From contig CAZWJX010000007.1 of the NCBI GenBank assembly GCA_964634695.1, positions 1 through 30,461 on the forward strand: a stretch of 30,461 nt of DNA, read 5' to 3'. Below the pieces are notes generated by a model that worked only from the letters and a program-made list of their open reading frames with translations, was not told the DNA's origin and did not search any database. Position numbers and translations under genes: made by a program. Positions 7,644 through 30,461 of the stretch are shown here, one piece after another. Numbering within the stretch: position 1 is the stretch's first letter; each line of letters opens with the position of its first letter. The stretch is from an uncultured Syntrophobacterales bacterium. Lineage in GTDB: Bacteria; Desulfobacterota; Syntrophobacteria; Syntrophobacterales; Thermodesulforhabdaceae.

Positions 7644-7894
7644 TGATTGTTTCGCTAAGTCCGCAATGATATTTTTTGTGTCATTGCGAGGAGCGAAGCG
7701 ACGAAGCAATCTCTTTGTTGTGACAAAAGAGAGATTGCCACGGCTGCTTCGCAGCCTCGCAATGACGGATTCGGTGGAGATTGCCACGCGCCCTTCGGGC
7801 GCTCGCAATGACACTTCGAGATTGTCACGGCTGCCTTACGGCAGCCTTGCAATGGCACCCACACTTGTCATTGCGAACGAAGCGAAGCAATCAC
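7644..7894. repeat. REP/BIME-like array 1 (5 full units + 1 degenerate)
   Basis: A 7680-7713, B 7731-7766, B 7777-7812, B 7818-7856, A 7867-7894; degenerate reversed A at ~7644-7669. Confidence 0.95.
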
Positions 7895-7936
7895 CACGGC
7901 CGATGGATAGTCTAGTCCGTCATCCCGGTGATTAAC

Positions 7937-8371
7937 TTATTTCTGACATTCTCCTATCCATCTCCCTTTGACTTTGTAAGTCACCTCCACTTTGTCTTCG
8001 CCCGACGATGTAGCTCTGGAGGATCCTTCAAATGAATCGCCTCTGTACGTTATCTCGCCTTCATTTGTCATTATTTCATTACCTTCTTTGCATACGATTT
8101 TGAAATGAACGGTATTCCCTTCAATTTTCTCTTCTACCTTACAGTCCTGCTTGCTCTCACTTCCTACAAAGATATTTCTTGAGTAATTCGCATTCTTATC
8201 TTTTATACACTGGGTAATTTTTTGAGGCGGCATTTGATATGGGACATTGGATGCTGTCATTTCAGTAGTAATTTCCCATAAGCCCTCCTTGAAGTTTAAC
8301 TCTCCACAAAAACTATTGTGCGACATAAAAAATGAACAAATCAGTATCAGGTAAAAAAACATTCTCCGCAT
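7937..8371 (-). CDS. DUF3617-family secreted protein (144 aa)
   Basis: Signal peptide followed by GLWEIT...QCI...DCKV...VC...GEITYRGDSFEG...GRWIGEC, the pattern I associate with DUF3617. Confidence 0.8.
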   Translation of the reverse strand: MRRMFFYLILICSFFMSHNSFCGELNFKEGLWEITTEMTASNVPYQMPPQKITQCIKDKNANYSRNIFVGSESKQDCKVEEKIEGNTVHFKIVCKEGNEIMTNEGEITYRGDSFEGSSRATSSGEDKVEVTYKVKGRWIGECQK

Positions 8372-8609
8372 TTTTCTCTCCTTTTACAGAAGTTATCCAT
8401 GAAGTCTCCAACCATTCGTTGATGCTACATTTTTGACATCAAAGAACTATATTCGAACTCTATAGTAGCCATCTATCTCTGTCAACGAATTTTGCTTTTT
8501 CAGAAACAAAACTCATAATAGATTGACCCCCTGAATTATTTTGTGCTAAAAAGTTCTTGATATAAAGCTGGATTTATCCCTTTAACCGAACTGTTTGGAG
8601 GATAGACTT

Positions 8610-8779
8610 ATGAGAGAGATGAAATTCTGGAAAAACTCAGGGAAAAGGGACTTACTGTTGAAGCTCTGGCTGAAAAGATGGGGTTTGATGCCAACATTTT
8701 GAAACTTTATCTTGCCCCTGATGATTATCCCATTCCGGATAGAATCATCAAAAAAATTGAGGAATCACTAGCAGCTTAA
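8610..8779 (+). pseudogene. Small HTH (XRE/Cro-like) DNA-binding protein, frameshifted directly after the start codon
   Basis: GGAGG SD (8597-8601) and ATG 8610. Frame 8618-8779 reads DEILEKLREKGLTVEALAEKMGFDANILKLYLAPDDYPIPDRIIKKIEESLAA* but is out of frame with the ATG across a GAGAGAGA run, and TAG 8603-8605 blocks that frame upstream. Confidence 0.65.
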
Positions 8780-8865
8780 ATTGGAAATCATGTAGAAATA
8801 CGCAAAAAAAATCCGCATCCCATTATGAACTTCTCTCTGATTTAACTTAAGTAACTATCAAAAAT

Positions 8866-8888
8866 GGGGTGGATTTAAACTCCGCCCC
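8866..8888. terminator. GC-rich stem-loop (possible terminator or degenerate GTAG-type REP)
   Basis: GGGGTGGA-TTTAAAC-TCCGCCCC, an 8-bp stem with one G-T pair, in intergenic position. Confidence 0.35.
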
Positions 8889-8938
8889 GGACAAGATCTA
8901 GGTTTACCGCAAGCACTTTTAATATCCAGGATTCAAAA

Positions 8939-9878
8939 ATGGAAATTACAGAATTGCAGAAGAAAACTTCTCAGGCGATAGTAAATATTTTTGAAACTGG
9001 TACTCCTCATGGTCATTATGGAAAAGTAACTCTTATACCCGGTGATCCCGGACATCTCACTTATGGAAGATCGCAGACCACGCTGAGCAGTGGAAATCTT
9101 TACCTTCTTATTAAGGATTACTGCAGCAGAGAAGGAGCTGTCTTAAAAGATAAACTTTCAGCTTACCTTGACCGTCTTTCAGCTAGGGATACGTCTCTTG
9201 ACAATGACATGTCGTTTCGGCGCCTTCTCAATGAAGCGGGAGACGATCCGGTGATGCAGGAAACTCAGGATAAGTTTTTTGATCGCATTTACTGGAATCC
9301 GGCAGTAAGCATCGCAGAAAAAAATGGGCATGACGAAGGTTCTTAGTGTCTGTGTGGTCTATGACAGCAAAATCCATGGTTCATGGAAACTTGTTCGTGA
9401 TCTTACAGAGCAAAAAGTGGGAACTTTTACTCAAGAACTGGAAGACAAATGGATTACCTGCTACGTTGAAACTCGCCGAAACTGGCTGGCAAATCACCCA
9501 ATTAAAATTCTCAGGAAAACCGTTTATAGGATGGATGCTTTTATTCAACTTATAAAGGAAAACAACTGGGATCTAGATCTTCCTTTATGGGTTTGCGGAA
9601 TAAGGCTTGATGAAGCTACTATAACCGGGCATTTTCTCAGAGCTTCAGCAACAGTTACCGAAGTGAGACTTTTAATGTTGACGCTACCCTACCAGAAAGG
9701 CGAGGATGTTCGTGAAGTACAAAAGGCTTTGCAACGTCATGGCTACGATGTCGAAGCAGATGGAGTCTTCGGTCCAGAAACGGATCTCGCCGTGAAAAAC
9801 TTTCAAAAACGATATGGCCTTGTGGTCGATGGTATTGTTGGGCCTGCGACTCTTGCAAAACTTGGTATTGAAGATTAA
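8939..9878 (+). pseudogene. Chitosanase (GH46)/lysozyme-like hydrolase with C-terminal peptidoglycan-binding domain, split by a frameshift (ORFs 8939-9346 and 9324-9878)
   Basis: N-part AIVNIFETG...GDPGHLTYGRSQTT...MQETQDKFFDRIYW; C-part VVYDSKIHGSW...YRMDAF plus a PG_binding_1 domain (GEDVREVQKALQRHGY...DGVFGPETDLAVKNFQKRYGLVVDGIVGPATLAKL). Deleting one A from the A7 run at 9318-9324 gives one 312-aa ORF (...AEKMGMTKVLSVCVVYDS...). Confidence 0.8.
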
Positions 9879-9892
9879 CCGGGGAGGTTGAG

Positions 9893-10435
9893 ATGGCGGA
9901 TATACACGTACCGTCGATTCCGTATCGAAATGTAAGGCCTCACGTATCCACAGGCGATGCAATTTTATGGAAAGGACGTAACTTGCTGGCAAGGATGATA
10001 AGACTATGGACGCCTTTTAACCATGCTTCGCTGGTTGTACGGCTCCAGAGGTACGACACCCTTGAACAGAGAGTTTTTCTGGTAGAAGCTATGGCTACCG
10101 GGCTGGAACTTCGCCTGCTTTCCAAACGGTTAGAAAACTATGACGGTGAAGCTTTCTGGTTTCATGTGGAAATGACGGAAGATCAACGATCACAAATACT
10201 GGATTTTGCCCTTACAAATTGTGCATCAGGCATTCCTTATGACTATGAATCTTTATTCAAAAATATGCTTGGAAGAGTATCTGCAGACGCAACAAGATAC
10301 TTCTGTTCAGAATTTGTATTCGATGCATGGGTTCACGCCGGCGTAACTTCATACCCCCCATCGGGTTCGGCTCCCAGACCTGGTGACATTCCAAAATGGG
10401 CTAAAGGAATATTAACCCAAATTACTGCTGAATAG
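9893..10435 (+). CDS. Circularly permuted NlpC/P60 (YiiX/YaeF-like) papain-fold hydrolase
   Basis: TGDAILW...FNHASL...YDY...YFCSEFV, with His before Cys as in permuted members; GGGGAGG SD. Confidence 0.8.
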   Translation: MADIHVPSIPYRNVRPHVSTGDAILWKGRNLLARMIRLWTPFNHASLVVRLQRYDTLEQRVFLVEAMATGLELRLLSKRLENYDGEAFWFHVEMTEDQRSQILDFALTNCASGIPYDYESLFKNMLGRVSADATRYFCSEFVFDAWVHAGVTSYPPSGSAPRPGDIPKWAKGILTQITAE

Positions 10436-10450
10436 AAAGCCATCAACGCT

Positions 10451-11149
10451 ATGACCGTTCAAGAGGCAATTGAACTTACCCCAATTTTTTCGGCCCTCAG
10501 TCCCGAATCAAAAAAAGAACTGGCGAATTTCTGCATTATAAAACATTACACCAAGGGTGAAACTTTATTCAGGGAAGGGACTAAAGCAAAAGGGTTTTTC
10601 GTTGTCCTTTCTGGGCTGGTTAAAGTTTTTAAAACGTCGTGGGAAGGAAAGGAACAGATACTTCACGTATTTGGCCCTTATGAAATATTTGCCGAAGTTC
10701 CCGTGTTTCACGGCACCACATACCCTGCTTCCGCGGAAGCCCTTGCCGAAACGGACGTGTTGTTTATTCCCAAAGAGGATTTCTTAACTTTTCTAAGTAA
10801 TCACGGCTCAGCAGCCATAGAGCTTCTCGCGGTGCTTTCGGAACGGCTCCGTCTGTTCACAAAACTTATTGAGGATCTTTCCCTTAAAGAAGTGCCTGCC
10901 CGTCTGGCTTCCTATATTCTTTATCGCCAGACTCAGGAAAAAGGAAATCGATCAATAACTCTTGACATTCCCAAAAACCTTCTAGCAGGACTTCTTGGAA
11001 CAACCCCGGAATCACTATCTCGAGCCTTTGCCAGAATGAAACAGATCGGATGTATAGACACATCGGGGCGAAATATAATAATCAATAACAGAGAACTTCT
11101 GGAACGAATCGCTCTGGAGGGAAGATGGACTGAAGATGATGAGATTTGA
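10451..11149 (+). CDS. Crp/Fnr family transcriptional regulator (HcpR/Dnr-like)
   Basis: cNMP-binding-like domain (LFREG...FFVVLSGLVKVFK...GKEQIL...FAEVPVF...YPASAEA) and C-terminal HTH (LAGLLGTTPESLSRAF); no Fnr-type Cys cluster. Confidence 0.9.
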   Translation: MTVQEAIELTPIFSALSPESKKELANFCIIKHYTKGETLFREGTKAKGFFVVLSGLVKVFKTSWEGKEQILHVFGPYEIFAEVPVFHGTTYPASAEALAETDVLFIPKEDFLTFLSNHGSAAIELLAVLSERLRLFTKLIEDLSLKEVPARLASYILYRQTQEKGNRSITLDIPKNLLAGLLGTTPESLSRAFARMKQIGCIDTSGRNIIINNRELLERIALEGRWTEDDEI

Positions 11150-11188
11150 TCACGGAGACCGCTAAAATCTAACCTTTGGGGGGAAATT

Positions 11189-12612: not shown

Positions 12613-12654
12613 ATAACACAGGCGAGAAACACAAAATGAGCAGGAGGACGGAAA

Positions 12655-12906
12655 ATGGCAAAAAAAGTAATGCTCTATGCACTCAGCACCTGCATTCACT
12701 GCAAAAACACAAAGGAATTTCTCAAGGGGTGTGGAGTCGATTATGACTGTATTGACGTGGACATGTTGACAGGGGAAGAAAGAGAGAAAGTCATAGAAGA
12801 GGTTCGTAAGTTAAATCCGAACCTTACTTTTCCAACTCTGGTGGTAGGGGACGAAGTAATAGTGGGCTTCAGGAAAGATAAGATTGAGGAGGCCTTGAAC
12901 AAATGA
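12655..12906 (+). CDS. Glutaredoxin-like (NrdH-type) redoxin
   Basis: LYALSTCIHCKNTK (CxxC), TFPTLVVGDEVIVGF. Confidence 0.9.
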   Translation: MAKKVMLYALSTCIHCKNTKEFLKGCGVDYDCIDVDMLTGEEREKVIEEVRKLNPNLTFPTLVVGDEVIVGFRKDKIEEALNK

Positions 12907-13226: not shown

Positions 13227-13293
13227 ATTGGAGATTTTACGGCAGTATTGCCGGCGAATAAAAAGGCAAAAAAACAATCGGGAGACAACAGGC

Positions 13294-13770
13294 ATGTACA
13301 GTCCGGGAGAGATTCTTAATCTCGCAATGATAATTGAAGAAAACGGTGAAGAATTCTATTACGAGCTTGCAGATCTTGCCAAGGATAGCTGTACAAGAGA
13401 GCTTCTGAAAAAGCTTGCAGAAGAGGAGAATAAACACAGACAACGGTTTCTGGAACTCAAAAGACACATTGACAGAATTTATAAACCGGATGCGCTGGAA
13501 AAGGTCTCCCGATTTCTAACTTCCGAAGCTTTTGGTGCGAGGCTATTTTCTCTGGACAGGGAAAAATTGAAAAGCATTGGAAGCTTCGAAGATGCCCTCC
13601 AGCTTGCTATAACACTCGAAGAGGATTCTATTATTTTTTACGAACTACTTAAATCTCTCTCCGACAGGGAAGAAACTCTAAAGGTTTTGGAGTTTATCAT
13701 CAAAGAAGAAAGGTCCCACGTAAATACCTTGAAAGAAATAGCCCTTTCGCTTGAAAAATCCTGTGCCTAG
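13294..13770 (+). CDS. Rubrerythrin/ferritin-like diiron protein (158 aa from ATG 13294)
   Basis: IEENGEEFY, LAEEENKH, LEEDSIIFY, IIKEERSH: duplicated ExxxxxxY/ExxH motifs; GGAG SD before 13294. Confidence 0.85.
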   Translation: MYSPGEILNLAMIIEENGEEFYYELADLAKDSCTRELLKKLAEEENKHRQRFLELKRHIDRIYKPDALEKVSRFLTSEAFGARLFSLDREKLKSIGSFEDALQLAITLEEDSIIFYELLKSLSDREETLKVLEFIIKEERSHVNTLKEIALSLEKSCA

Positions 13771-14353
13771 CCCGAGTTTGTCAAGGCATTTTGTAAAATT
13801 ATTGAAGTCATTGGACGTGGGGCCCCAGATTCTACACTAATGCGTCGTAAAGATTTCAGTGAACTCCCCAGTGAGAGATTGCCACGGCCACTTCGTGGCC
13901 TCGCAATGACGGTTTCGGTAGGGATTGCCGCGCGCCCTCCGGGCGCTCGCAATGACTCTTCTTCGTGTCATTGCGAGCGAAGCGAAGCAATCTCGTCAGT
14001 GTGTCATTGCGAGGAGCGAAGCGACGAAGCAATCTCTTATTGTTGTGCTCTGTGTCATTGCGAGCGAAGCGAATCAATCTCTCCTTGTTTTACCCTGCGT
14101 CATTGCGAGCCCGAACGAAGTGAGGGCGAAGCAATCCCTTTTTGTCCGTCTTTGGAAGATTGCCACGGCCACTTCGTGGCCTTGCAATGACGGTTTCGGT
14201 AGGGATTGCCACGCGCCCTCCGGGCGCTCGCAATGACTCTTCTTTGTGTCATTGCGAGCGAAGCGAATCAATCTCTCCTTGTTTTCCCCTGCGTCATTGC
14301 GAGCCCGAACGAAGTGAGGGCGAAGCAATCCCTTTGTTGTGGTAAGTTCGGCT
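13770..14353. mobile_element. MITE-like non-autonomous element carrying REP array 2, flanked by TA at a reconstructed CCTAGG site
   Basis: Left ~105 bp and right 25 bp are homologous to the ends of 27831-28136; TA at 13768-13769 and 14354-14355; excision restores overlapping TAG stops of both flanking genes. Confidence 0.6.
13875..14332. repeat. REP/BIME-like array 2 (10 units, internal tandem duplication)
   Basis: B 13875-13910, B 13921-13956, A 13967-13994, A 14003-14036, A 14054-14081, A 14099-14138, B 14156-14191, B 14202-14237, A 14248-14275, A 14293-14332. Confidence 0.95.
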
Positions 14354-14994
14354 TAGGTCACGGGGTTTTTCTCACGCCGCATGCTGAGAGCCTTTATAAC
14401 GGTCGGAAGAAAAGAAACTACAATGATTCCGACGATTACTAGCGAGAAATTCTTCTTGACAAAAGACAGATTCCCGAAGTGGTAACCTATCCATGTAAGC
14501 GACGATGTCCACAAAACACTGCCCAGAGCATTATAAAACATGAACTTACCATAGTTCATTCGACCAATACCGGCAACAAAAGGGACGAACGTCCTGAAAA
14601 TCGGAAGAAACCTTGCTATTACAACGGCCTTTGACCCGTGTTTTTCATAGAACGCGTGAGTCGTTTCAAGATGTTTTTTGTTGAAAAAAATAGACTTTTC
14701 TTTTGAAAATACTTTTGGACCAACATACCTTCCTATGTGGTAATTTACAACATTTCCCAAAACGGCGGCAATGCTCATGGTGCCGAAAGCTACCCACGGA
14801 TCGAGAAGTTCTCTAGCCGCAAGCGCACCTACGGCAAACAGCAGTGAATCCCCCGGCAAAAACGGAGTTACCACAAAGCCGGTTTCAGAAAAAATGATGA
14901 AAAACAGCACTACATATGTCCAGGAGCCGACAAACTCCAGTAGCCTTTCAAGATAAATATCAACGTGCAAAATAAAATCGACGAATTCAGACAC
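14353..14994 (-). CDS. dedA: DedA family membrane protein (213 aa from GTG 14994)
   Basis: IIFSETGFVVTPFLPGDSLLFAVGAL...ARFLPIFRTFVPFVAG...GYHFGN; GGGGGT SD 6 nt before GTG. Confidence 0.9.
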   Translation of the reverse strand: MSEFVDFILHVDIYLERLLEFVGSWTYVVLFFIIFSETGFVVTPFLPGDSLLFAVGALAARELLDPWVAFGTMSIAAVLGNVVNYHIGRYVGPKVFSKEKSIFFNKKHLETTHAFYEKHGSKAVVIARFLPIFRTFVPFVAGIGRMNYGKFMFYNALGSVLWTSSLTWIGYHFGNLSFVKKNFSLVIVGIIVVSFLPTVIKALSMRREKNPVT

Positions 14995-19123: not shown

Positions 19124-19126
19124 GCG

Positions 19127-19837
19127 ATGCTTCTGAAAGTGGAAGGGCTCGTGGTTAAATATGGAAATATCGAAGCACTGCACGGAATAGACCTTCAGGT
19201 TGACGAAGGCGAAATCGTGACAATCCTCGGAGCAAACGGAGCCGGCAAATCCACGACTCTTCTCACCATAAGCGGCTTAACCCGTCCGGCAAGCGGAAGT
19301 ATTTTCTTTGACAATCAGCCAATACATAAGCTTCCGCCCCACCAGATTGTAAAACTGGGGATAGCGCAGGTTCCCGAAGGCCGGCGACTCTTTGCAACTC
19401 TCACCGTGAGGGAAAATCTTCTTCTCGGGTCCATAACCCAGAATGACCGTTCGAAAGTAGCAGAGATGGAAGAACGGATATATGAGATGTTTCCGATACT
19501 CAAAGAGCGTCGCTCTCAGCTTGCCGGAACGCTAAGCGGTGGCGAACAGCAGATGCTTGCCATCGGAAGAGCTCTCATGAGCCGCCCGCGACTGCTTCTT
19601 CTCGATGAGCCAAGTCTCGGGCTTGCACCCCTGCTGGTAAAAAGCATCTTTCAGACCATTCAGGAAATAAACCAGAAAGAGGGGGTGACCGTCCTCCTTG
19701 TGGAGCAGAACGCCCGGGCTGCTCTTACGATAGCCCATCGTGGCTACGTGATGGAAACGGGACGTATAGCCCTGACCGATAGTGCAGCTGCGCTTCTTAA
19801 CAATCCGGACGTAAAAAGAGCTTATTTAGGCGGTTAA
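19127..19837 (+). CDS. livF: Branched-chain amino acid ABC transporter ATP-binding protein
   Basis: GANGAGKS, VPEGRR, LSGGEQQ, LLLDEPSLGLAP, LLVEQN, VKRAYLG. Confidence 0.93.
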   Translation: MLLKVEGLVVKYGNIEALHGIDLQVDEGEIVTILGANGAGKSTTLLTISGLTRPASGSIFFDNQPIHKLPPHQIVKLGIAQVPEGRRLFATLTVRENLLLGSITQNDRSKVAEMEERIYEMFPILKERRSQLAGTLSGGEQQMLAIGRALMSRPRLLLLDEPSLGLAPLLVKSIFQTIQEINQKEGVTVLLVEQNARAALTIAHRGYVMETGRIALTDSAAALLNNPDVKRAYLGG

Positions 19838-21007
19838 TTATCCAAATTGCCGTCTGAACCTGTAGGCCCCGATCACGAAAGCTGCGGTTCCCAGAAGTGA
19901 AAGTCCCAGGAACAACTTCCAGAGCACTTTAAACCCGGCGCCTCGAAGCAGGATCCCATAGCTCATCTCGATGAAATAATAGAGGGGAGAAAGATGGATG
20001 GCTCGACGAAGCCACAGAGGCATAGCTTCCGGTGGTGTCCACGTGCCGGAAAGCAGCACCACAGGCATGGCAACAACGAGAACCATCATTGTGACCTGGG
20101 CAAGATTCCTCGCAAAGGTTGCTATAAAAAGTCCCATGCCTGAAACTGCCACAGTGTAGAGTGCGACGGTAACAAAAAACAGAACAAGACTTCCTTTTAT
20201 GGGAATATCAAACACGCCTTTAATCACTCCGAAGAGAGCCGCTGCCGTTCCGATAAGAACCACCAGCGTCATAGATACCACCTTCGGGATCATGACCTGA
20301 GCTGGCGTAAGAGGAGAAACCAAAAGTTGCTCAATTGTCCCTCGTTCTTTCTCTCTCACGGCAGCCGCTGCAGGAAGGATTAACCCGCAGATAGTTATCA
20401 CGGTAAGAAGTTCGGAAATAGGCAAAAACCAGGCGTCCTGCTGGTTAGGGTTATACCAGACACGAACCCGAAGATCTACTCGTGGAATAGTTTCCAGCCT
20501 GTCTGGATGGATTTTCATCACATCAAGCGCCATATCAAGGGCATAGTCGCCAATGATCCGGGCGCCGTAGGTTGAAGCCAGCGTCCCCAGAGCGGTATTG
20601 CTCCCATCTATCATCATCTGAACATCAACAGCCCTGCCGTCGTGTAAATTCCGCCAGAAATGCTCAGGAATGTCGAGAAAAACCATTGCCCTGCCGCGAT
20701 CGAGCATTTCGATCCCCTCGCGATCGCTCAATACCTCACCTTCCAGCCGGAAATAGGGCGGTCGGAATCTGGCGATCAGTTCTCGAGATGCCTCACTGTG
20801 ATCAAGGTCTCGAACGATGAGCCCTACCCGATGAAGCTCCAGAGGCACATTACTGCTCAACCAGATATCGAGTGTAAACATGTAGGCTATCGCTATCAGA
20901 AGAATCCTGTCTCGAGAAAGTTGAAGTAGCTCTTTTACCGTAAGAGCCCAGATGCGAATCAACCACAAATGCAAACTTTGAAAGGTAGAAGACGCACGCA
21001 CGTTCAT
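19838..21007 (-). CDS. ABC-2 type exporter permease (YhhJ/YbhR-like)
   Basis: KELLQLSRD, VWYNPN, AVREKERGTIEQLLVSP; multiple TM segments. Confidence 0.88.
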   Translation of the reverse strand: MNVRASSTFQSLHLWLIRIWALTVKELLQLSRDRILLIAIAYMFTLDIWLSSNVPLELHRVGLIVRDLDHSEASRELIARFRPPYFRLEGEVLSDREGIEMLDRGRAMVFLDIPEHFWRNLHDGRAVDVQMMIDGSNTALGTLASTYGARIIGDYALDMALDVMKIHPDRLETIPRVDLRVRVWYNPNQQDAWFLPISELLTVITICGLILPAAAAVREKERGTIEQLLVSPLTPAQVMIPKVVSMTLVVLIGTAAALFGVIKGVFDIPIKGSLVLFFVTVALYTVAVSGMGLFIATFARNLAQVTMMVLVVAMPVVLLSGTWTPPEAMPLWLRRAIHLSPLYYFIEMSYGILLRGAGFKVLWKLFLGLSLLGTAAFVIGAYRFRRQFG

Positions 21008-21021
21008 ACCGAATATCCTCT

Positions 21022-22176
21022 TCAGGATTTTGGACGCTTGGAAAACATCATAAAACTAATAACCCACAATACTGCGGCGTATATTGCAAGAGCGAGTACT
21101 CTATCCCACAGATCAGCTACACCGACGTTTTTTAGAAAACTGCCGAGAACGATGTCAGTAAAATACATGGCCGGGAAGAGATGAGCCTGGAACTGACCAA
21201 CGGTCTCCATGGAAGACACCGGAATAAACAGCCCGGAATAAAGCATCGAAGGAACCACCGTTAAAACAACCGTAACCATCATGGCTGCTACCTGAGTCCT
21301 GACTATTAGTGACACCAGAAGTCCTATACCGGTTGTGCAGATAACGTAAACGGCGGAAGAGCAAAAGAAAAAGAGCGGGTCGCCTTTGAACGGCGTGCCG
21401 AACAGAAAGACCGTCCATACCCAGAGGATTACGCTGTTGAGTATGGAAATGAAAACATAGGGCGCAAGCTTCCCGAGAATGAATTCACCACGAGTCACGG
21501 TAGAACAGTAAATGTTATAAATCGACCCGAACTCTTTTTCTCTCACCACGCCAAGAGCCGTTAAAAACGGCGGGGATACCATGAGAACAAACATGATCAT
21601 CGCCGCGGAAATAGACCACGTGCTCTTGAGTTCCTGATTATAAAGATACCTGATCTGGACTCGCACAGGCTGGGCTCGATCTTCTGCCCGATCTCGAGGA
21701 ATCCCCATCTGCTTCGACAGATGATCGGCAAGAAGCTCCGTATTGAAGGCCGCGTTCATGGCAAGCACGTATCCTTTGCTTGTCATTGATCTAAATGGAA
21801 ACACACCATCGATAATGCTCTGTACTGTAGTTGCCCGGCCAGAGCGAATGTCCCGTTCAAAATGCTCGGGAATTATCAGCGCAAAACGGATACGGCTCGC
21901 TTCAAACAGGGGCTTTAAGAGGGCCTCATCTTCAACATCGCCTTTGTAGTCGAAATATCGTGAACCGATAAATCTATAGATATAGTCACGGCTCGTAGGG
22001 GTTCTGTCGTAGTCCACAACGCAAAAGGGAATGTTCTCGACGTCAAGAATCAGGCCATAACCGAAGACAAGGAGCATGAAGCTTGGAACAAAAAAAGCCA
22101 GCACCAGAAAGAGTCTGTCCCGGACAATTTCTCGCCATTCTTTGTAAGCTATTGCAATCACCCGTTCCAGATTCAT
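21022..22176 (-). CDS. ABC-2 type exporter permease (YbhS-like)
   Basis: KEWREIVRD, VVDYDRT, YLYNQEL, VVREKEFGSI, FILGKLAPY. Confidence 0.88.
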   Translation of the reverse strand: MNLERVIAIAYKEWREIVRDRLFLVLAFFVPSFMLLVFGYGLILDVENIPFCVVDYDRTPTSRDYIYRFIGSRYFDYKGDVEDEALLKPLFEASRIRFALIIPEHFERDIRSGRATTVQSIIDGVFPFRSMTSKGYVLAMNAAFNTELLADHLSKQMGIPRDRAEDRAQPVRVQIRYLYNQELKSTWSISAAMIMFVLMVSPPFLTALGVVREKEFGSIYNIYCSTVTRGEFILGKLAPYVFISILNSVILWVWTVFLFGTPFKGDPLFFFCSSAVYVICTTGIGLLVSLIVRTQVAAMMVTVVLTVVPSMLYSGLFIPVSSMETVGQFQAHLFPAMYFTDIVLGSFLKNVGVADLWDRVLALAIYAAVLWVISFMMFSKRPKS

Positions 22177-22198
22177 GGAGACTGATCCTTTCTACGAG

Positions 22199-22535
22199 TC
22201 TTACACCGTCATTGCGAGCCCGAGCGAAGCGAAGGGTGAAGCAATCTCGTTAGTGTGTCATTGCGAAGAGCGAAGCGACGAAGCAATCTCGTCATTGTCT
22301 TTTTATGAGATTGCCACGGCTGCCTTGCGGCAGCCTCGCAATGACTCTCACGCCCGTCGTTGCAATGACTCTCACGCCCGTCGTTGCAATGACCCTCAGG
22401 CCCGTCATTGCGAGCGAAGCGAAGCAATCTCTCTGTTGTTCTTCTTTTATGAGATTGCCACGGCCACTTCGTGGCCTCGCAATGACGGAAAAGAAAACGT
22501 GGTCTCGCAATGACAGTATAAGAGGCCTCGCAATG
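22199..22535. repeat. REP/BIME-like array 3 inside the ABC exporter operon, bounded by 20-bp inverted repeats and containing a 24-bp tandem repeat
   Basis: IR 22199-22218/22504-22523 (18/20); A 22208-22248, A 22257-22290, B 22307-22345, 3x24 bp 22338-22409, A 22404-22431, B 22451-22486, two partial B. Confidence 0.95.
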
Positions 22536-22558
22536 CTTCATTTTCGCTGCATTCATCC

Positions 22559-24526
22559 TCACGATGACACAAATCGCTCAAGCTTTGTAATGCGATAAAT
22601 AAACACATCCTCAAGAGTGGGCTCCTGAAGAACAATATCGACAGGAGTGCCGTCTTTTAAAGTCTCTCTAATGTGGCGCATTGCCTCTTCCACATTGCGA
22701 GCAAAAACGTGAATCCTGTCTCCGAAAAAGGAGGCTTCCGGATATGTCGGTCGCAGCTTCCCCAGGGCTGAAAAAGGATCTTTTGTTCTAATGGCAAGAA
22801 GTTCTCCAACTTCGGCCTTCAGTTGAGCCTTCAGCGAGGATGGAGAGTCATAGGCAACAATACGACCTGCGTGCATAATAGCCAGACGATCGCAGTGTTC
22901 CGCTTCGCTCATGTAGTGAGTCGTTATAAGTATGGCAACGCCTTCAGCCCGGGCGAGGTGAGTGAGTATGTCCCAGAAACGGCGTCTTCCCAGAGGATCT
23001 ACGCCGGAAGTAGGTTCATCGAGAAAAAGTATATGGGGCGAATGAATGATGGCACAGGCCAGAGCAAGACGCTGACGGATGCCCATGGGAAGTCTTCCGG
23101 CAAGGCTCTCTTCGTATCCACCAAGACCTGTCAAATCGATCACTTCAGCAATCCGCTCTGAAGCTTTTTTACCGGAAACTCCGTAAATACCGGCAAATAG
23201 GCGTAGATTTTCCATAACGGTAAGATCCTGATAGAGCGAAAAAGCCTGTGACATATAACCTATGCGTTCCTTGATCGCCTTGCCAGCCCGACGCATATCA
23301 ACGCCTGCAATTCTGCCTTCTCCGCTGGTAGGAGGAAGAATCCCCGTGAGCATTTTAATGAGAGTCGTCTTTCCTGCACCGTTAGCCCCGAGAAGGCCGA
23401 AGATTTCGCCTCGTCTAACCTCAAAACTTGCTCTGTCAACGGCGCGAAAAGAACCGAAGTCCCGCGTCAATTCACAGGCTTCAATGACGACCTCGCCGGA
23501 GGAAAAACCGCGAATATCTTCCCTTGCACTTTCAGGAATTTTTTCTGTTTCCGCCGGATAGCCACTCCCGATAATTGACGATGCTCCTTGACGATCACGG
23601 CGAAGCAGAGCAACGAAGACATCTTCAAGCGTGGGATCAGTTTCTTCCACGCGGGTTATAGTTATCCCTTTGAGAAGTTCCGTGACCGGTTCCCCGGGAG
23701 ATTCGTTATCCACAAGAACCCGGATATACCCACCAAGGTTATCAACATGAGAAAATATCGACCGAAGTCTAGTGATTGCACCTATTTGATCGGGGGTTAC
23801 AATCTCAAAAACATTCCCCGGCAGTTCTCTTCGTAACCCTGCAGGATCCCCGCTCGCAAGAACTCGTCCGTCGAACATGAAAGCCAGCCGGTGGAATCGC
23901 TCAGCTTCGTCCAGATAAGCCGTAGAAACAATCGCCGTTATGCCCTGAGTGTAGAGAAGCTCTGTCAGAATCTCCCAGAAGTCCCGTCTTGAGACGGGAT
24001 CAACGCCCGTTGTGGGTTCATCAAGGATAATTAGTTCCGGCTGGTGTATGAGTGTGCAGATCAGTCCCAGTTTCTGTTTCATGCCACCGGAAAGATGCTT
24101 CATCGCACGGTCGGTGAAGCGATCAAGGCGGGTCATGGCAAGGAGTTTTTTCTTTCGCTCCTCCAGTTCCCGACCTTTAACGCCTCTAAGTCTGGCGAAA
24201 AAATCTATGTTTTCTTCTACCGAAAGCTCAGCATAAAGGTTAAGCCCCAGCCCCTGTGGCATGAACCCTATGCGATGTTTAACAAGTTCGGCAGACTCTT
24301 CCGAATCGAGACTCACACCGAAAACTTCAACAATACCTTTGTCGAAGGAGAGCACTCCTGCGATAGCCTTCATCAGGGTGCTCTTCCCTGCCCCGTCGGG
24401 TCCTATCAATCCGAAAATTTCGCCCCGGTTTATTTCGAGACTGACTTTCTCCACAGCCCGACGTTTGTTATAGCTTTTGGCAAAATCTATTACCCTGACA
24501 ACAGGAGAAACTGCATGGTTTACCAT
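22559..24526 (-). CDS. ABC transporter ATP-binding protein with two ATPase domains (YbhF/RbbA-like), 655 aa from ATG 24526
   Basis: GPDGAGKS/LSGGMKQ/LDEPTTGVDP and GANGAGKT/LPMGIRQ/LDEPTSGVDP; ATG 24526 overlaps the upstream stop (ATGGTAA). Confidence 0.9.
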   Translation of the reverse strand: MVNHAVSPVVRVIDFAKSYNKRRAVEKVSLEINRGEIFGLIGPDGAGKSTLMKAIAGVLSFDKGIVEVFGVSLDSEESAELVKHRIGFMPQGLGLNLYAELSVEENIDFFARLRGVKGRELEERKKKLLAMTRLDRFTDRAMKHLSGGMKQKLGLICTLIHQPELIILDEPTTGVDPVSRRDFWEILTELLYTQGITAIVSTAYLDEAERFHRLAFMFDGRVLASGDPAGLRRELPGNVFEIVTPDQIGAITRLRSIFSHVDNLGGYIRVLVDNESPGEPVTELLKGITITRVEETDPTLEDVFVALLRRDRQGASSIIGSGYPAETEKIPESAREDIRGFSSGEVVIEACELTRDFGSFRAVDRASFEVRRGEIFGLLGANGAGKTTLIKMLTGILPPTSGEGRIAGVDMRRAGKAIKERIGYMSQAFSLYQDLTVMENLRLFAGIYGVSGKKASERIAEVIDLTGLGGYEESLAGRLPMGIRQRLALACAIIHSPHILFLDEPTSGVDPLGRRRFWDILTHLARAEGVAILITTHYMSEAEHCDRLAIMHAGRIVAYDSPSSLKAQLKAEVGELLAIRTKDPFSALGKLRPTYPEASFFGDRIHVFARNVEEAMRHIRETLKDGTPVDIVLQEPTLEDVFIYRITKLERFVSS

Positions 24527-25635
24527 CGCGGTTTCACCCAGGGAGCATCTTCTTTCCATTTTATGACGGCGTCTGCAGGCAGACCGGGCGTCAAGCGATG
24601 ATCGGGATTTTCATCCAGGTAGAGCCTCACGGCAAACACGAGCTTTACGCGTTCATCGGGAGTCTGAACCTCCTTTGGTGTGAATTGAGCTCTGGATGCG
24701 ATGTATTTAACGGTAGCAGGGAAAAACGCTTCGGGGAAGGCATCTACATATATACGGGCAGGAAGGCCAAGTCGGACCTTACCTATATCTTTCTCGGGAA
24801 CGTAAACTTGAAGGTAGAGCCGATCCAGATTCACAATATCAAAAAGGGGCGTTCCTGCCGTTATAACTTCTCCCATATCAACCATGCGGTTGGTCACCAC
24901 ACCGGAGGTAGGGGCACAGATGGTGAGATCGTTCAGAGTGGCTTCGGCCTCCCGGAGAGCGGCCCGAGCCTGCTCAAGTTGAGCGGAGATAGCTTCCACT
25001 TCAGCTTCTTTTGTTTTAATGCGATCGTAGCCGAGAAGAGCCTGAGCAAGCTGTTTTTCTGCTGTCTTTACAGCTTCCTGAGCTGAACGCAACTGGTTCA
25101 TAGCCACTTTACGAGAGAGATCGGCCTGTTCAAAACGGCGTTTATCAATTGCGCCTGATGAAAAAAGCTTCTCATAACGCATGGCGTCACGTTCGGCCTG
25201 TTCGGCCTGAATCTGGGCAGAGGCATGAGCCGCTCGAGCCTGAGACAGCGCAGCTCTGGCCGTTTCCACCGCTAGCGGCACGTCTTTTCGGAGTAAGTCT
25301 AAGGTAAACTGTGAGGCTTTAAGCTGTGCTTCCAGTGTGGAAACTGCCTGCCTAGCCTGATCGACTCTGGCAGAAATCTGAGCATCATCAAGCCGGGCAA
25401 CTATTTGACCTTCCTGAACGGTATCGCCTTCACGAACAAACATTTCAACGATCTTTCCCGGGACCTTGCTAGATACGGTAAATCGATCGCCTTCAATACG
25501 ACCGTTTGCTTGTATGAGTCCTTCGGGTAGGGAAGGTTTACGGAAAAAGCTTAAAGCGATAAGTGTGGCTATGGACGCTGCGATGACCACTATTACGACA
25601 AAAGCCCTTGAGCCTGAGAAAATCCGCTTAATCAT
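24520..25635 (-). CDS. HlyD family membrane-fusion/periplasmic adaptor protein (YbhG/YhiI-like), 371 aa from ATG 25635
   Basis: N-terminal TM, ANGRIEG, VREGDTVQEGQIVARLD, coiled hairpin, AQFTPKEVQTPDERVKLVF, PGLPAD; GAGGGG SD. Confidence 0.9.
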   Translation of the reverse strand: MIKRIFSGSRAFVVIVVIAASIATLIALSFFRKPSLPEGLIQANGRIEGDRFTVSSKVPGKIVEMFVREGDTVQEGQIVARLDDAQISARVDQARQAVSTLEAQLKASQFTLDLLRKDVPLAVETARAALSQARAAHASAQIQAEQAERDAMRYEKLFSSGAIDKRRFEQADLSRKVAMNQLRSAQEAVKTAEKQLAQALLGYDRIKTKEAEVEAISAQLEQARAALREAEATLNDLTICAPTSGVVTNRMVDMGEVITAGTPLFDIVNLDRLYLQVYVPEKDIGKVRLGLPARIYVDAFPEAFFPATVKYIASRAQFTPKEVQTPDERVKLVFAVRLYLDENPDHRLTPGLPADAVIKWKEDAPWVKPRW

Positions 25636-25758
25636 TGTCCGATCCCCTCGCATTTGAGACTGTTTCGAATCAGACTAGCATCCGGGGAAATATATCACGG
25701 GACAGCAGACGGTTGAATACAATTAAATGACAAGCGATGGATATTTTTTCAGACTGAA

Positions 25759-26099
25759 GAGATTGCCACGGCTACTTCGCAGCCTCGAAATGACACCAGC
25801 ATGCGTCATTGCGAGGAGCGAAGCGACGAAGCAATCTCTGAGATTGCCACGCGCCCTTCGGGCGCTCGCAATGACGTAACGCATGTGTCATTGCGAGGAG
25901 CGAAGCGACGAAGCAATCTCGCCGTTGCGAGGGCTTTTTCCTGTCATTGCGAGCGAAGCGAAGCAATCTCATAATTGCTTTTTTGTGAGATTGCCACGAC
26001 CACTTCGTGGTCTCGCAATGACGGATTCGGTAGAGATTGCCACGACCGCCTTACGGCGGCCTCGCAATGACGAAATAGGGAACGCAGCCTCGCAATGGC
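25759..26099. repeat. REP/BIME-like array 4 (7 units + 1 partial) between the divergent ABC operon and tRNA-Gly
   Basis: B 25759-25794, A 25805-25838, B 25840-25875, A 25887-25920, A 25943-25970, B 25987-26022, B 26033-26071, partial B 26084-26099. Confidence 0.95.
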
Positions 26100-26190
26100 T
26101 TTCCTTTACCCGTCTAGGTTCTACATGAAATACAATACACCTTGTTGCCATTCCACTAAATCCCTTCTTTCGAACAGGCTCTCAATCCTC

Positions 26191-26219
26191 TTGACTAGAA
26201 AACTTTTTTGGGTTATTAA
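26191..26219 (+). promoter_or_regulatory. Putative sigma70 promoter of tRNA-Gly
   Basis: TTGACT (26191-26196), 17-nt spacer, TATTAA (26214-26219), ending 17 nt before the tRNA. Confidence 0.4.
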
Positions 26220-26236
26220 ATTTCTGGTTCAAACGA

Positions 26237-26311
<75 letters not shown>

Positions 26312-26333
26312 TCTCAAAAAAGAAAAAATCAGG

Positions 26334-27344
26334 ATGCTCAGCAGAAAAGAGTGCCTTCGCAGATTCTACCACCAGTTCCAGCCAGAAGACAATGTTTTAA
26401 TAACCATAGATCCGGATCCCGATGCAATAGCGTCGGCTTTAGCTGTGAAAAGGCTATTGTGGCATCATGTTAAAGAAGTTCATATAGCCACAATCAGACC
26501 CATAAGACGCTGGAACAACATAACAATGGTAAAATTACTCAAAATACAGATGGAGGATTTTAACTCCATCTCTCTCGACAAGTATTCAAAGTTTGTTCTT
26601 GTGGACGGTCAGGCTCATCATAACGATGTTTTTAAGTCCTTATCTTACAACGTCATCATAGATCACCACCCCTTACCTGAACCTACCTACCCGTGTTATC
26701 CAACAGAGTGTAACATCGAAAAAAAGCCTTTTGTTGATATACGCCCGACATACGGCTCCACATCAACAATTCTCACGGAATATCTGAAGGCTAAAGGCAT
26801 AAAACCATCCAGAACACTTGCCACAGCTCTTGCCTACGGCATTAAAACCGACACAAGAAACTTTGAAAGACAAACCATAGAAGAAGATATAAGATCTTTT
26901 TTGTTCCTCTATCCCTACGTCAATCGCCATGTTCTGAACAAAATTGAAATATCCGATCTATCCGTCGAAGATCTCAAATATTTCGATGATGCGCTGAAAC
27001 ATTACACAGTAACCAAACACCGGATACTGGTATGCCTGGATGAAGTGCCGTCGCATGATATTCTCGTAATACTTTCCGAATTCTTCCTTAAACTTCACGA
27101 AATTTCCTTCAGTATTGTTGCTGGCATAGTGGATAGCTCTCTTATCGTAGTGGGAAGAAGTGACGGCAGAAAACACGTGGGAGAATTTCTAAAAAAAGCC
27201 TTTGGCAATGCAGGATCTGCTGGAGGCCATGCCGCCATGGGAAAGGCCGAAATTCCTCTGGAATATCTAAGAAAAAAATATTCGGTTCCCAGATGCGGAC
27301 GCACCATCATCCAGAAGTTTCTTAATGAAGCAATGGCGTATTGA
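26334..27344 (+). CDS. DHH family phosphoesterase (NrnA-like)
   Basis: DPDPDAIASA, VLVDG, IIDHH, GSTSTI, GIKTDT, GSAGGH. Confidence 0.88.
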   Translation: MLSRKECLRRFYHQFQPEDNVLITIDPDPDAIASALAVKRLLWHHVKEVHIATIRPIRRWNNITMVKLLKIQMEDFNSISLDKYSKFVLVDGQAHHNDVFKSLSYNVIIDHHPLPEPTYPCYPTECNIEKKPFVDIRPTYGSTSTILTEYLKAKGIKPSRTLATALAYGIKTDTRNFERQTIEEDIRSFLFLYPYVNRHVLNKIEISDLSVEDLKYFDDALKHYTVTKHRILVCLDEVPSHDILVILSEFFLKLHEISFSIVAGIVDSSLIVVGRSDGRKHVGEFLKKAFGNAGSAGGHAAMGKAEIPLEYLRKKYSVPRCGRTIIQKFLNEAMAY

Positions 27345-27347
27345 CTT

Positions 27348-27803
27348 ATGAAAAATAATCCCCTGAAAGAAGTTGAAATTTACACCGACGGAGCCTGTAG
27401 TGGAAATCCAGGGCCCGGCGGTTGGGCAGCAATAATAAAGCGTGAAAACGAAACAGAGGAAATCTGGGGCTTTGATCCCAAAACCACTAACAATCGCATG
27501 GAACTCATATCCGTCATAGAAGCGCTTAAGAAAATCAAAGAGGCCAGCAAGATTCGGATATATACTGATTCCCGCTACCTTAAGGAAGGCATCACTTCCT
27601 GGATAGAAAAATGGCAAAGAAATGGTTGGAAAACCTCTTCAGGAACGCCTGTAAAAAATAGGGACCTCTGGGAACTTCTTCTTAAGCTGGCCAGTCCTCA
27701 CCAGATTGAATGGCACTGGATTCCCGGACACAGCAATCATCCAGAAAATACAAGATGTGACGCACTTGCTCGCCAGGCCATAAAGAAATGCCAGAGTGCT
27801 TGA
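27348..27803 (+). CDS. rnhA: Ribonuclease HI
   Basis: IYTDGACSGNPGPGGW, TTNNRMEL, YTDSRY, WQRNGWKT, VKNRDLW, WIPGHS, NTRCDALA. Confidence 0.96.
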   Translation: MKNNPLKEVEIYTDGACSGNPGPGGWAAIIKRENETEEIWGFDPKTTNNRMELISVIEALKKIKEASKIRIYTDSRYLKEGITSWIEKWQRNGWKTSSGTPVKNRDLWELLLKLASPHQIEWHWIPGHSNHPENTRCDALARQAIKKCQSA

Positions 27804-27830
27804 AAGCCTATCAGGCTGACTTCGATACTA

Positions 27831-28136
27831 ACCCGAGTTTGTCAAAGCATTTTTAAGCTGTTGAAATCATTGGATGTTGGTCAAAGATTTATAGTGCCTC
27901 GCAAGGACTTTAGTGAGAGCTTTAGTAAAAGATTGCCACGGCTGCTTCGCAGCCTCGCAATGACGGTTAGTAACTGTCATTGCGAGCCGGAGCGTAGCGA
28001 AGGCGAAGCAATCTCGTCATTATAATAAAATGATGAGATTGCCACGCGCCCTTCGGGCGCTCGCAATGACGTAATGCATGTGTCATTGCTAGGAGCGAAG
28101 CGACGAAGCAACCTCTTTGTTGCAACAATCTCGGGT
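27831..28136. mobile_element. MITE-like element carrying REP array 5, with 12-bp terminal inverted repeats
   Basis: ACCCGAGTTTGT (27831-27842) / ACAATCTCGGGT (28125-28136), 11/12 inverted match; ends homologous to 13770-14353; flanks TA and CA; reconstructed site contains CTAG. Confidence 0.6.
27929..28115. repeat. REP/BIME-like array 5 (4 units)
   Basis: B 27929-27964, A 27976-28015, B 28035-28070, A 28082-28115. Confidence 0.95.
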
Positions 28137-28163
28137 CAGGGCACGGTGTGCCGTGCCCCTGCC
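28136..28163 (-). repeat. Second palindrome type, degenerate GTAG-like REP
   Basis: Minus strand GCAG-GGGCACGG-CACA-CCGTGCCC-TGA; perfect 8-bp stem 28139-28146/28151-28158. Confidence 0.5.
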
Positions 28164-28197
28164 AGTTAGCCTGTTTCCAGCTTCCAGAATCGCTATA

Positions 28198-30273
28198 TTA
28201 AGCCGTAGCGGCAATAGGTTCTACAGTTTCGTCCTCTACTTTCGACACTCTTATTGCACAAACCTTTAATTCAGGAATTTTAGCTATGGGATCAAGAGCT
28301 GTATTTGTTAGCCGATTTGCTGCCGCCTCGGCAAAATGAAATGGCATAAAGATAACTCCTCGCTTTATCGATTTTGTGACAAATGCCCGAGTTGTTATAG
28401 CACCCCGGCGGCTTTCGAGTTTCACCATATCGCCATCTCTAATTCCAAGATTTGCAGCATCTTCCGGATGAATTTCCATATAGGGCTCGTTAAGTTCCCT
28501 TACCAGATGGAAAGACCGGCGTGTCATCGTTCCCGTATGGTAGTGCACATAAACCCGTCCTGTGGTCAGCCAGAAAGGATACTCTTCGTCGGGCTCTTCA
28601 GCAGGCTCTTTGTATTCGACAGGATGAAACAGTCCCTTACCTCTGGCGAACTGTCCTCTATGAAGGATAGGAGTCCCTGGATGATCCGGTGTAGGACATG
28701 GCCAGATCAATCCACCGGGTTCTCTGTCGAGCCTCTCATAGGAAATTCCCGCATAGGATGGCGTAAGAGAGGCAAGCTCTCGGAATATTTCTTCGGCCGA
28801 GGCATAATTCATCTGGTATCCGAGCCTGACAGCCAGATCCTGAAATATTGCCCACTCTACACGACTTGAACCTACCGGTTCTATGGCTTTCCTGACGCGC
28901 TGAACACGGCGTTCTGAATTAGTGAAGGTGCCGTCTTTTTCGGCAAAAGACACGCCCGGAAGCACAACGTGAGCAAGCTCCGTAGTTTGAGTTGGGAAAA
29001 TATCGATTACTACAATCAGTTCCAGCTTCTTCAAGGCTTCTTCTACATGATGTGTATCGGGATCGCTTACCATAGGATTTTCGCCCATTATCACCAGTGC
29101 CTTAAGCTTTCCTTCCAGAGCAGCATTTGTCATTTCGACGATGGTAAGTCCAACTTCGGAAGAAAGGTTAACTCCCCACGCTTTTTCGAATTTTTCCTTA
29201 TTAGCCGGAACACTTACGACCTGATAGCCAGGATAAACATTCGGCAAGCCTCCAACATCACAGGCCCCCTGAACGTTGTTCTGCCCGCGAAGAGGATTAA
29301 CCCCTGTGGATGGCCTCCCAACGTGTCCGCAAAGCATAGCTAAATTTGCAAGACTCTTTACGTTGTCGACTCCCGTTGTGTGTTGAGTTATCCCCATGCA
29401 GTAAATAATCGAGCTGCTTTCGGACTTTGCATAGTATTCGGCAATCTTTACGATGTCATCTTCCGGAACTTCTGTTATTTTCGAAACCAGCGACGGTGGA
29501 TATTTTTCGATAACTTCAACCAGTGCCTCAAAGTTTTCCGTGCGCTCTTCAACGAATTCTCGATTGTACCACCCTTCTTTGTAAATGACATGCATTATAC
29601 CATTTATCAAGGCAACGTCCGTTCCCAGTCGATGCTGCACGTAAATGTCGGCAAAACTTCCCAGATGAATCTTTCTTGGATCTGCCACGATGAGCCTGGC
29701 GCCTTTTGCTTTCGCTGTGTAAATCCTGGTTGCAACAAGAGGATGTGCAACCGTAGTGTTGGATCCTATCACAAAAATGCACCTGGCGTCCTCAGTCTCG
29801 GGAAAAGAGTTTGTCATAGCTCCGCTTCCAAGAGATGCGGCAAGACCTGCCACGGTAGAAGAATGTCAGAGGCGGGCGCAATGGTCCACGTTGTTTGTGC
29901 CGATCACGGCACGAGCAAACTTCTGGGCTACATAATTGTCTTCATTGGTGCACTTTGCGCTAACGAAAAAGCCTACACTATCCGGCCCATAATTGCTCTT
30001 GATGCGAGCAAGCTCTTTTGCCACATAATCAAGAGCCTCATCCCACGAGACCGGTTCAAGCCCTCCATTCTTCCTGAGTAGCGGATCAGTAAGACGTGCC
30101 GGATGATGTATAAATTCGTGGACATTCCATCCCTTAATGCAAAGCTTGCCTTCATTTACAGGATTTGACTTAACCGGAATGGTTCTAACAACCTTCCCCC
30201 CCAGAACTTCTAACGCTACTCCACATCCGCAACCACAATATGTGCAAACAGTTGGCACAATACGATAATCCAT
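28198..30273 (-). CDS. fdhF: Selenocysteine-containing formate dehydrogenase alpha subunit (FdhF-type, Mo/W-bis-PGD), 691 aa; joins track ORFs 29866-30297 and 28198-29853
   Basis: CTYCGCGC...LCIKG [4Fe-4S] motif; NNVDHCARL-TGA(29868-29866)-HSSTVAGLAASLGSGAMTNS; PLRGQNNVQGACD; molybdopterin dinucleotide-binding C-terminus; AGGAGG SD before ATG 30273; no Tat signal. Confidence 0.93.
29837..29865 (-). promoter_or_regulatory. Bacterial SECIS element
   Basis: After UGA: CAUUCUUCUACC, then stem GUGGCA / loop GGUCU / UGCCGC. Spacing and the apical GCAGGUCU sequence resemble the E. coli fdhF SECIS. Confidence 0.85.
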
Positions 30274-30372
30274 TCCTATCCCCCTCCTGATAGGCAAATT
30301 ATACGATTACCTGTACGGAAAATGTATATCACAAAAATTTAAACCGTGACTAGAGTTTTGGTTTAATTTTTT

Positions 30373-30461
30373 GAAGGCCGGGGAGGCGAAGCGGTCTCGT
30401 TATTTTATGAGATTGCCACGGCCACTTCGTGGCCTCGCAATGACACCTACACTCGTCATTG
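30373..30461. repeat. REP/BIME-like array 6 (truncated by window edge)
   Basis: Degenerate A ~30373-30398, B 30409-30444, start of A (GTCATTG) at 30455-30461. Confidence 0.9.

Follow-up and report, generated by a model that had tools for sequence, protein, structure and literature searches.

Dense clusters of short hairpin repeats lie between the genes of the 30,461-nt stretch analyzed here (the window: positions 1 to 30,461 of contig CAZWJX010000007.1, assembly GCA_964634695.1, from an uncultured Syntrophobacterales bacterium), raising the question of what these units are and which protein recognizes them. Our best overall explanation, which we consider likely, is that they belong with the CGTC/TGTC-tagged repeat superfamily and the Ssn-related motifs (SRMs), as cognate single-stranded DNA (ssDNA) sites of the Ssn family of GIY-YIG nucleases, and that they have recently expanded in this organism.

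The 11-mer GTCATTGCGAG, which forms the head of each unit, occurs 36 times in the window with at most one mismatch, compared with 0.56 copies expected; none of 100 dinucleotide-preserving shuffles matched this count. Full units number 30 by a strict regular expression and 32 at E ≤ 0.012 by a covariance model trained mostly on units from other genomes, in agreement with a first-pass annotation of this DNA that had reported ~33 units with two core types in opposite orientation. The general layout is Y-GTCATTGCGAG-hairpin-CG(AA/YG)-GCAATCTC, with a total length of 28–42 nt; in the window, the head is followed by a variable core, a CGAA, CGTG or CGCG junction, and a GCAATC-TC tail. The position preceding the head (-1) is C or T in 89% of window copies and in 91% of copies elsewhere, and heads and tails are nearly free of mutations over the 32 window units.

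These units fall into two classes. All 16 plus-strand units are of type A, with cores GAGCGAAGCGAC, CGAAGC or CCC...GGG and a CGAA junction. On the minus strand, 15 of 16 units are of type B, with a GC-rich Watson–Crick stem of 5–7 bp and a CGTG or CGCG junction, the lone non-B unit being a solitary A at 5481–5512. The B stems are GGCCAC/GTGGCC, GACCAC/GTGGTC (25987–26023), GCGCCC/GGGCGC, GGCTGC/GCAGCC, GGCTGCC/GGCAGCC and GGCCGCC/GGCGGTC, closed by GAA, GCAA or GTAA loops, or by GGA in two copies (13921 and 14202); every stem pair and loop listed in the first-pass annotation is present among the window units. The units match no curated RNA family, as an Rfam scan of the window at gathering thresholds returned tRNA-Gly only, and a literature search with the head sequence as literal text found unrelated primers only. 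The literature on small dispersed repeats of cyanobacteria offered no lead either.

To describe how the units fold, we used a purely positional model: an ATTGC/GCAAT helix on the outside, a short internal loop, and an inner helix whose closing pair joins the G of GAG to the C of CGNN. The model was tested on distinct units drawn from the window and many other genomes and grouped into two ungapped length classes. The 5-bp outer helix is invariant in the pooled units, and the internal loop sets GA against GAA or GTG. In the inner helix, by contrast with this invariance, 4 of 5 and 5 of 6 pairs (in the two length classes, respectively) are altered on both sides. Covariation scores reach 0.174 and 0.263, compared with 0.056 and 0.075 in shuffles, with none of 500 shuffles as high. 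When the 3′ partner is slid out of register, the share of paired cells falls from 87–89% to 15–55%, and the cells left unpaired in register lie mostly at a recurrent tandem G.A/A.G motif (GAG-GA-stem-GA-CGAA) common to many units. Nesting of the stem from the junction is many-fold above that of shuffled cores, with at least 69 distinct stems in use. Together, this strong covariation and the diversity of stems bear out the earlier proposal that the inner helix is kept as structure and not as sequence.

Folded as ssDNA, B units are more stable than their shuffles (z = -2.6 to -3.4). Such stability would also suit elements acting at the RNA level, as terminators, mRNA stabilizers or processing sites, with hairpins selected in transcripts independently of any nuclease. 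Several arrays of units are found downstream of genes and one within an operon, and RNA-level action is known for the repetitive extragenic palindromes (REPs) of Escherichia coli. However, arrays are found between convergent, tandem and divergent genes alike, the units match no Rfam family, and a head and tail that are non-palindromic yet invariant across phyla point to a sequence-specific protein partner. Furthermore, SsnA, the Neisseria meningitidis member of the Ssn family, does not bind RNA (PMC11893778), which makes the RNA recognition once suggested for these hairpins unlikely. We regard an RNA-level explanation as quite improbable, though an RNA role could exist as a secondary effect.

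Is the unit particular to this lineage? Scanning one genome per species (596 Gb) with a 17-base pattern identified at least 120 loci carrying it. The taxa represented among the matches listed include Alpha-, Gamma- and Deltaproteobacteria, Chloroflexota, Bacteroidota, Planctomycetota, Nitrospirota, Zixibacteria, Patescibacteria, Oscillospiraceae, Armatimonadota, Nostoc and Microcoleus. By our estimate, chance alone could give ~2000 pattern matches across 596 Gb. The matches are nevertheless genuine: a CGAA, CGTG or CGCG junction, which the pattern does not demand, is present in 265 of 300 distinct cores from the fetched loci and the window. Inverted unit pairs are present in many of these loci. 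IMG/VR viral contigs (L208–L327) contain a further 202 units in 120 loci, 88% of them with one of the same three junctions. The unit is thus found in more than 12 phyla as well as in viral contigs, and is therefore not a lineage-specific REP or bacterial interspersed mosaic element (BIME). Phages may be a vehicle for its spread between phyla. An Ssn homologue is encoded in only 1 of the 120 viral or proviral loci.

We next asked which proteins accompany the units. All open reading frames (ORFs) lying up to 400 bp from a unit were clustered across the 120 genome loci. Most of the recurrent clusters are junk peptides derived from the repeats (HCEERSDEAI, DCFASLAMT, LLRFARNDG), and a few others are ordinary neighbor genes, each seen at two or three loci. 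The sole real recurrent protein tied to the units is a GIY-YIG domain protein of ~96–100 aa. At two loci (L082 and L098), its gene (96–100 aa; PF01541, E = 1e-16 to 1e-18) exactly fills the gap between two inverted units. For a reverse test, we picked 80 metagenome loci only for the presence of a homologue of this protein (56–72% identity). In 76 of these 80 loci, the gene has a head with at most one mismatch no more than 150 bp away, compared with a chance expectation that we estimate at ~0.005 per locus, and heads are found on both sides of the gene in 60 of the 75 loci with enough flank. Typically, a plus-strand unit ends 4–25 nt before the start codon and a minus-strand unit begins 2–18 nt past the stop; alternatively, the gene sits between two complete dimers. 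An exact GCAATC, which was not demanded, follows within 52 nt of 263 of the 334 heads in these loci.

The associated proteins are 93–100 aa long, carry PF01541 only, and have intact motif residues (Y9, Y20-T-G22, R30, H34 and E67). Their family comprises at least 7,989 clusters at E ≤ 1e-10, with members, among the matches listed, from Zixibacteria, Dehalococcoidia, Nitrospirota, Deltaproteobacteria and the cyanobacterium Mastigocoleus. The first-pass annotation had called for a nuclease or transposase gene consistently associated with the arrays across genomes, encoding either a GIY-YIG or an HUH-type, RAYT-like protein. The association is clear from the reverse test, and it singles out the GIY-YIG candidate; the HUH/RAYT candidate falls away, as the unit's tag is YGTC and not GTAG and no RAYT recurs near the units.

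Mobilization of the repeats by a RAYT-type HUH (Y1) transposase, as for REP/BIME elements, would account for the BIME-like layout, in which inverted palindromic units of two types alternate in intergenic clusters. Like the REP/BIME-RAYT and REPIN systems of E. coli and Pseudomonas, the system described here consists of short palindromic units of at least two types in alternating orientation, an inverted doublet is the proposed mobile unit, and a single small nuclease gene flanked by repeats acts on ssDNA hairpins. In contrast, REPs bear a GTAG tag, which the window units lack, and their enzyme is an HUH tyrosine transposase. Such transposases work through a covalent intermediate, unlike the hydrolytic GIY-YIG nucleases. 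REP sequences are also species-specific, whereas the head and tail of the window-type unit are identical across phyla. No recurrent Y1 gene was found among the ORFs adjoining units in the 120 genomes, where the GIY-YIG gene is the only real protein to recur, and CGTC repeats were judged to lack a dedicated transposase in a previous survey (PMC3733652). We consider RAYT mobilization so improbable that it can nearly be set aside, and the "BIME-like" description given to these repeats is an analogy only.

Ssn proteins, by comparison, provide a close parallel. These ~94-aa single-domain GIY-YIG proteins (CDD cd10448; Chenal et al. 2025, PMC11893778) target CGTCATT...AATCY hairpin repeats. SsnA and three homologues bind hairpin repeats called NTS (CGTCATTCCCGCGMAVGCGGGAATCYRG) and cut upstream of them, acting on ssDNA only and on one strand only, with no action on double-stranded DNA or RNA (PMC11893778). 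SRMs are found in the flanks of 71% of Ssn homologues and on both sides of 42%, and the NTS-ssnA-NTS arrangement resembles an insertion sequence, according to the authors (PMC11893778). The window unit is likewise an oriented hairpin of 28–42 nt, within the 20–50 nt of such repeats, with a YGTCATT head, an AATC-Y tail, and high copy number in intergenic clusters. Its form Y-GTCATTGCGAG...GCAATC-YC has the non-palindromic flanks HGTC.. and ..RNCY. In other genomes it flanks a ~94–95-aa GIY-YIG gene, often on both sides as two inverted units, and it is spread across phyla. The two differ in architecture, as the window unit combines an ATTGC/GCAAT outer stem with an internal loop and a free inner hairpin, whereas the NTS stem is continuous (TTCCCGCG). 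They also differ in setting: the window host belongs to a thermophilic Desulfobacterota lineage and is not a symbiont.

A second parallel is the CGTC/TGTC-tagged REP superfamily, described by Di Nocera et al. 2013 (PMC3733652) as having AT-initial stems, short unpaired tails, and inverted dimers that are mostly heterodimers. There, four families are reported from five phyla, with "no dedicated transposase", and RAYT genes are said to be flanked by GTAG repeats or by unrelated terminal inverted repeats. Our units share with this superfamily the (C/T)GTC-ATTGC head with an AT-initial stem, the short unpaired tail, the inverted dimers that are often heterodimers, and the occasional large clusters. 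The window tail, however, is CTC, whereas the CGTC REP consensus is CCA.

The arrangement of A and B units within arrays shows a consistent grammar. In every array, A and B lie in opposite orientation, and all tail-to-tail pairs in the window consist of A(+), a 1–20 nt and usually T-rich spacer, and B(-). In other genomes, 153 pairs are tail-to-tail, 61 are head-to-head and 45 are head-to-tail. There, 91 pairs join units of unlike class, with 67 expected (0 of 2000 shuffles as high), and only 2 of the 153 tail-to-tail pairs have identical cores. The joining of unlike partners in inverted orientation is a family-wide rule. The idea that this two-subtype grammar might be special to the lineage is thus not upheld, as unlike inverted heterodimers are common in other phyla and were already described in 2013 for CGTC repeats (PMC3733652). 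The simplest reason for the rule would be that identical inverted units form perfect palindromes of more than 30 bp, which are unstable and untolerated by bacteria. The uniform strand polarity seen in the window does not generalize either: a strain that is 99.9% identical has, only 5 kb past the end of the window, an array with B on the plus and A on the minus strand. We set aside a replication-strand signal in this polarity as unproven, with six arrays compared with two when the solitary unit at 5479 is counted (estimated binomial p ~0.3).

Units in the window occupy seven intergenic sites amid ordinary chromosomal genes, located by the regular expression and the covariance model:

5479–5512, minus strand: solitary A-long unit, TTCATTGCGAG-GAGCGAAGCGAC-GAAGCAATCTC (33.8 bits with the covariance model).
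7680–7894, mixed strands: five-unit array (regular expression and covariance model) of A-long 7680–7713 (+); B 7731–7766 (-) with a GGCTGC stem; B 7777–7812 (-) with a GCGCCC stem; degenerate B ~7814–7850 (-); A-short variant 7867–7894 (+).
13875–14332, mixed strands: ten-unit array in the order B- B- A+ A+ A+ A+ B- B- A+ A+.
22207–22550, mixed strands: array within a DevBCA-like ABC operon (regular expression and covariance model), with A-xl 22208–22248 (+); A-long 22257–22290 (+); B 22307–22345 (-) with a 7-bp stem and GCAA loop; A-short 22404–22431 (+); B 22451–22486 (-); truncated heads to ~22550.
25759–26100, mixed strands: array upstream of tRNA-Gly, in the order B- (with a G.T wobble), A-long+, B-, A-long+, A-short+, B- (the GACCAC/GTGGTC stem), B- (GTAA loop), truncated head.
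27898–28115, mixed strands: array between RNase H and FdhA-like genes (regular expression and covariance model), with a truncated head; B 27931–27964 (-); A-xl 27976–28015 (+); B 28035–28070 (-); A-long variant 28082–28115 (+).
30380–30461: array cut by the window end, with a degenerate A tail; B 30409–30444 (-); and a further head beginning at 30456.

The ten-unit array contains an internal duplication of ~280 bp and holds both GGA-loop B units (13921 and 14202). Together with the runs of units in the same orientation, this duplication indicates that tandem duplication adds to array growth. At 22346–22403, a head that is both truncated and mutated (CGTTGCAATGACTCTCACGCCCGT) recurs as three tandem copies of 24 nt, which represent slippage debris. 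Two arrays share a non-repeat shell (13767–14356 and 27831–28136), whose left ends are nearly identical (cccgagtttgtcaa, then g or a, then gcatttt...); in the copy at 27831–28136, the right end mirrors the left as a terminal inverted repeat. This shell looks like a miniature inverted-repeat transposable element (MITE) with unit arrays as cargo.

The age of these arrays can be judged from related genomes. Among named homologues, those closest to the DHH protein of the window (79–80% identity) come from metagenome-assembled genomes (MAGs) of Thermodesulforhabdaceae and Syntrophobacterales, and sequencing runs containing the window sequence derive from hot-spring, oil-field and subsurface metagenomes. 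The 99.9%-identical strain is represented by a 14.5-kb contig (L121, GCA_049968115.1) with 24 units by the covariance model; in it, the array that is cut at 30461 continues with six more units. Over 7.2 kb, the two sequences differ by one indel, a 53-bp loss in L121 at 25898–25950 that corresponds to exactly one unit plus spacer, as from recombination between adjacent A units, though L121 is a MAG and assembly collapse could explain this difference. Conversely, two partly syntenic relatives with ~80% protein identity (L205 and L207) have zero units in 21 kb each by both methods. The unit family has therefore expanded recently in this Thermodesulforhabdaceae-like species. The RNase H–fdhA spacer is too diverged in the relatives to define an empty site.

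Several observations weigh against assigning the units to Ssn. Neither the window nor the 14.5-kb L121 contig (37 kb examined) contains an Ssn gene, and searching 200 fetched loci with exact B-unit cores did not recover an Ssn locus of the same organism. The solved structures nearest to the associated nuclease are UPF0213 proteins, which are distant (E = 1.5e-6 only), and NCBIfam and PDB sequence searches gave it no specific family name. The published SRM pattern, HGTCWYN(0-2)YYVSBRHN(0-5)WNVSBRGN(0-2)RNCYNB, has no match in the window; five representative units fail it, whereas the NTS control matches. This pattern is an operational search pattern and not a biological definition. The unit's membership rests on the association test made here and not on the published definition. 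Under nearest-neighbor DNA parameters, A units show no significant stability (z = +0.7 to +1.7); the case that they fold draws on what the literature has established for the stability of the d(GCGAAGC) mini-hairpin, of sheared G.A pairs and of GNA loops. Compensatory change in a DNA palindrome can also arise by intra-strand template switching without selection, so covariation alone is no proof of selection. Finally, a hydrolytic nuclease has no known route for copying repeats.

Because no Ssn gene was found in these 37 kb, the arrays may be orphans: relics of an Ssn-associated family whose cognate nuclease was lost or never encoded here, changing only by slippage, tandem duplication and recombination or riding passively in a MITE-like shell. 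The internal segmental duplication, the recombination-type loss of a unit between strains, and the shell shared by two arrays are all in keeping with this, as is the published figure of 19% for genomes that carry over 200 SRMs but have no Ssn homologue (PMC11893778). However, heads and tails are almost free of mutations over 32 units, and units are absent from relatives at ~80% protein identity, which implies recent, efficient spread that passive processes explain poorly. We consider the orphan scenario unlikely, though clearly more plausible than RNA-level selection or a RAYT.

On one strand, as the covariation shows, a unit folds into the invariant 5-bp outer helix, an internal loop, and a sequence-free inner hairpin with a conserved G-C closing pair. 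If the units are Ssn sites, as we favor, and judging from homologues, Ssn would read the head Y-GTCATTGCGAG and the tail GCAATC-YC in this folded ssDNA and nick a few bases 5′ of the head, presumably whenever the DNA is single-stranded, as in replication, repair, transformation or conjugation. In other genomes the autonomous form is a unit(+)–ssn gene–unit(-) arrangement of ~400 bp, from which the window's gene-less tail-to-tail pairs with 17–20 nt T-rich spacers may derive, and the nuclease may promote the spread of these gene-less dimers. The arrays have also been enlarged by local tandem duplication and unit-to-unit recombination.

A bolder proposal, to which we give limited credence, is that the ATTGC-type unit, with a head and tail unchanged from Desulfobacterota to Patescibacteria, Nostoc and viral contigs, is the most cosmopolitan Ssn partner and that its gene-less heterodimers are REPIN-like non-autonomous elements, copied via a ~95-aa GIY-YIG nuclease acting on ssDNA. 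Here A (G.A-mismatched, folding on one strand) and B (Watson–Crick) units would serve as unlike ends. If true, this would be a mobility mechanism outside the recognized transposase classes, and the burst in this species would offer a natural system in which to catch copying in action. More generally, if the nuclease does drive copying, the system would be informative about the spread of hairpin repeats in the absence of a classical transposase. For comparison, this thermophile offers a dense and recent burst of units together with a near-identical strain and relatives that lack them. Irrespective of mechanism, the published SRM motif misses the very widespread ATTGC-type subfamily, and a repeat otherwise visible as junk ORFs in countless annotations (VIARSEATKQS, RLLRRFAPRND, DCFASLAMT) can now be tied to a defined protein partner.

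For annotation, ORFs called over the arrays should be regarded as artefacts; in the window, those derived from the repeats are 7666–7935, 13840–14190, 13925–14236, 14074–14328, 22175–22513, 22209–22562 and 25883–26128. The solitary A unit encodes approximately the last 13 codons (..IARSEATKQS..) of ORF 5471–6442.

Genes neighboring the arrays include a MotA-like operon, Crp, ferredoxin-thioredoxin reductase, Liv and DevBCA-like ABC transporters, tRNA-Gly, NrnA-like DHH, RNase H and FdhA-like genes. Only 244 bp separate the liv operon from tRNA-Gly/DHH in the relative L207 (9649–9893), whereas in the window a 6.4-kb DevBCA-like exporter operon and two arrays lie between them (19770–26225), an insertion or deletion adjoining the tRNA gene. 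On the minus strand at 28198–30297, two ORFs (551 and 143 aa) that look like a split molybdopterin oxidoreductase form one gene, whose only in-frame TGA falls in CARL-U-HSSTVAG, the classical selenocysteine site of formate dehydrogenase alpha subunits; L121 and L205 have it called as one 691-aa product. At 8939–9878, a GH46-like N-terminal ORF (8939–9346) overlaps a peptidoglycan-binding ORF in another frame (9324–9878), possibly representing a frameshifted cell-wall hydrolase gene.

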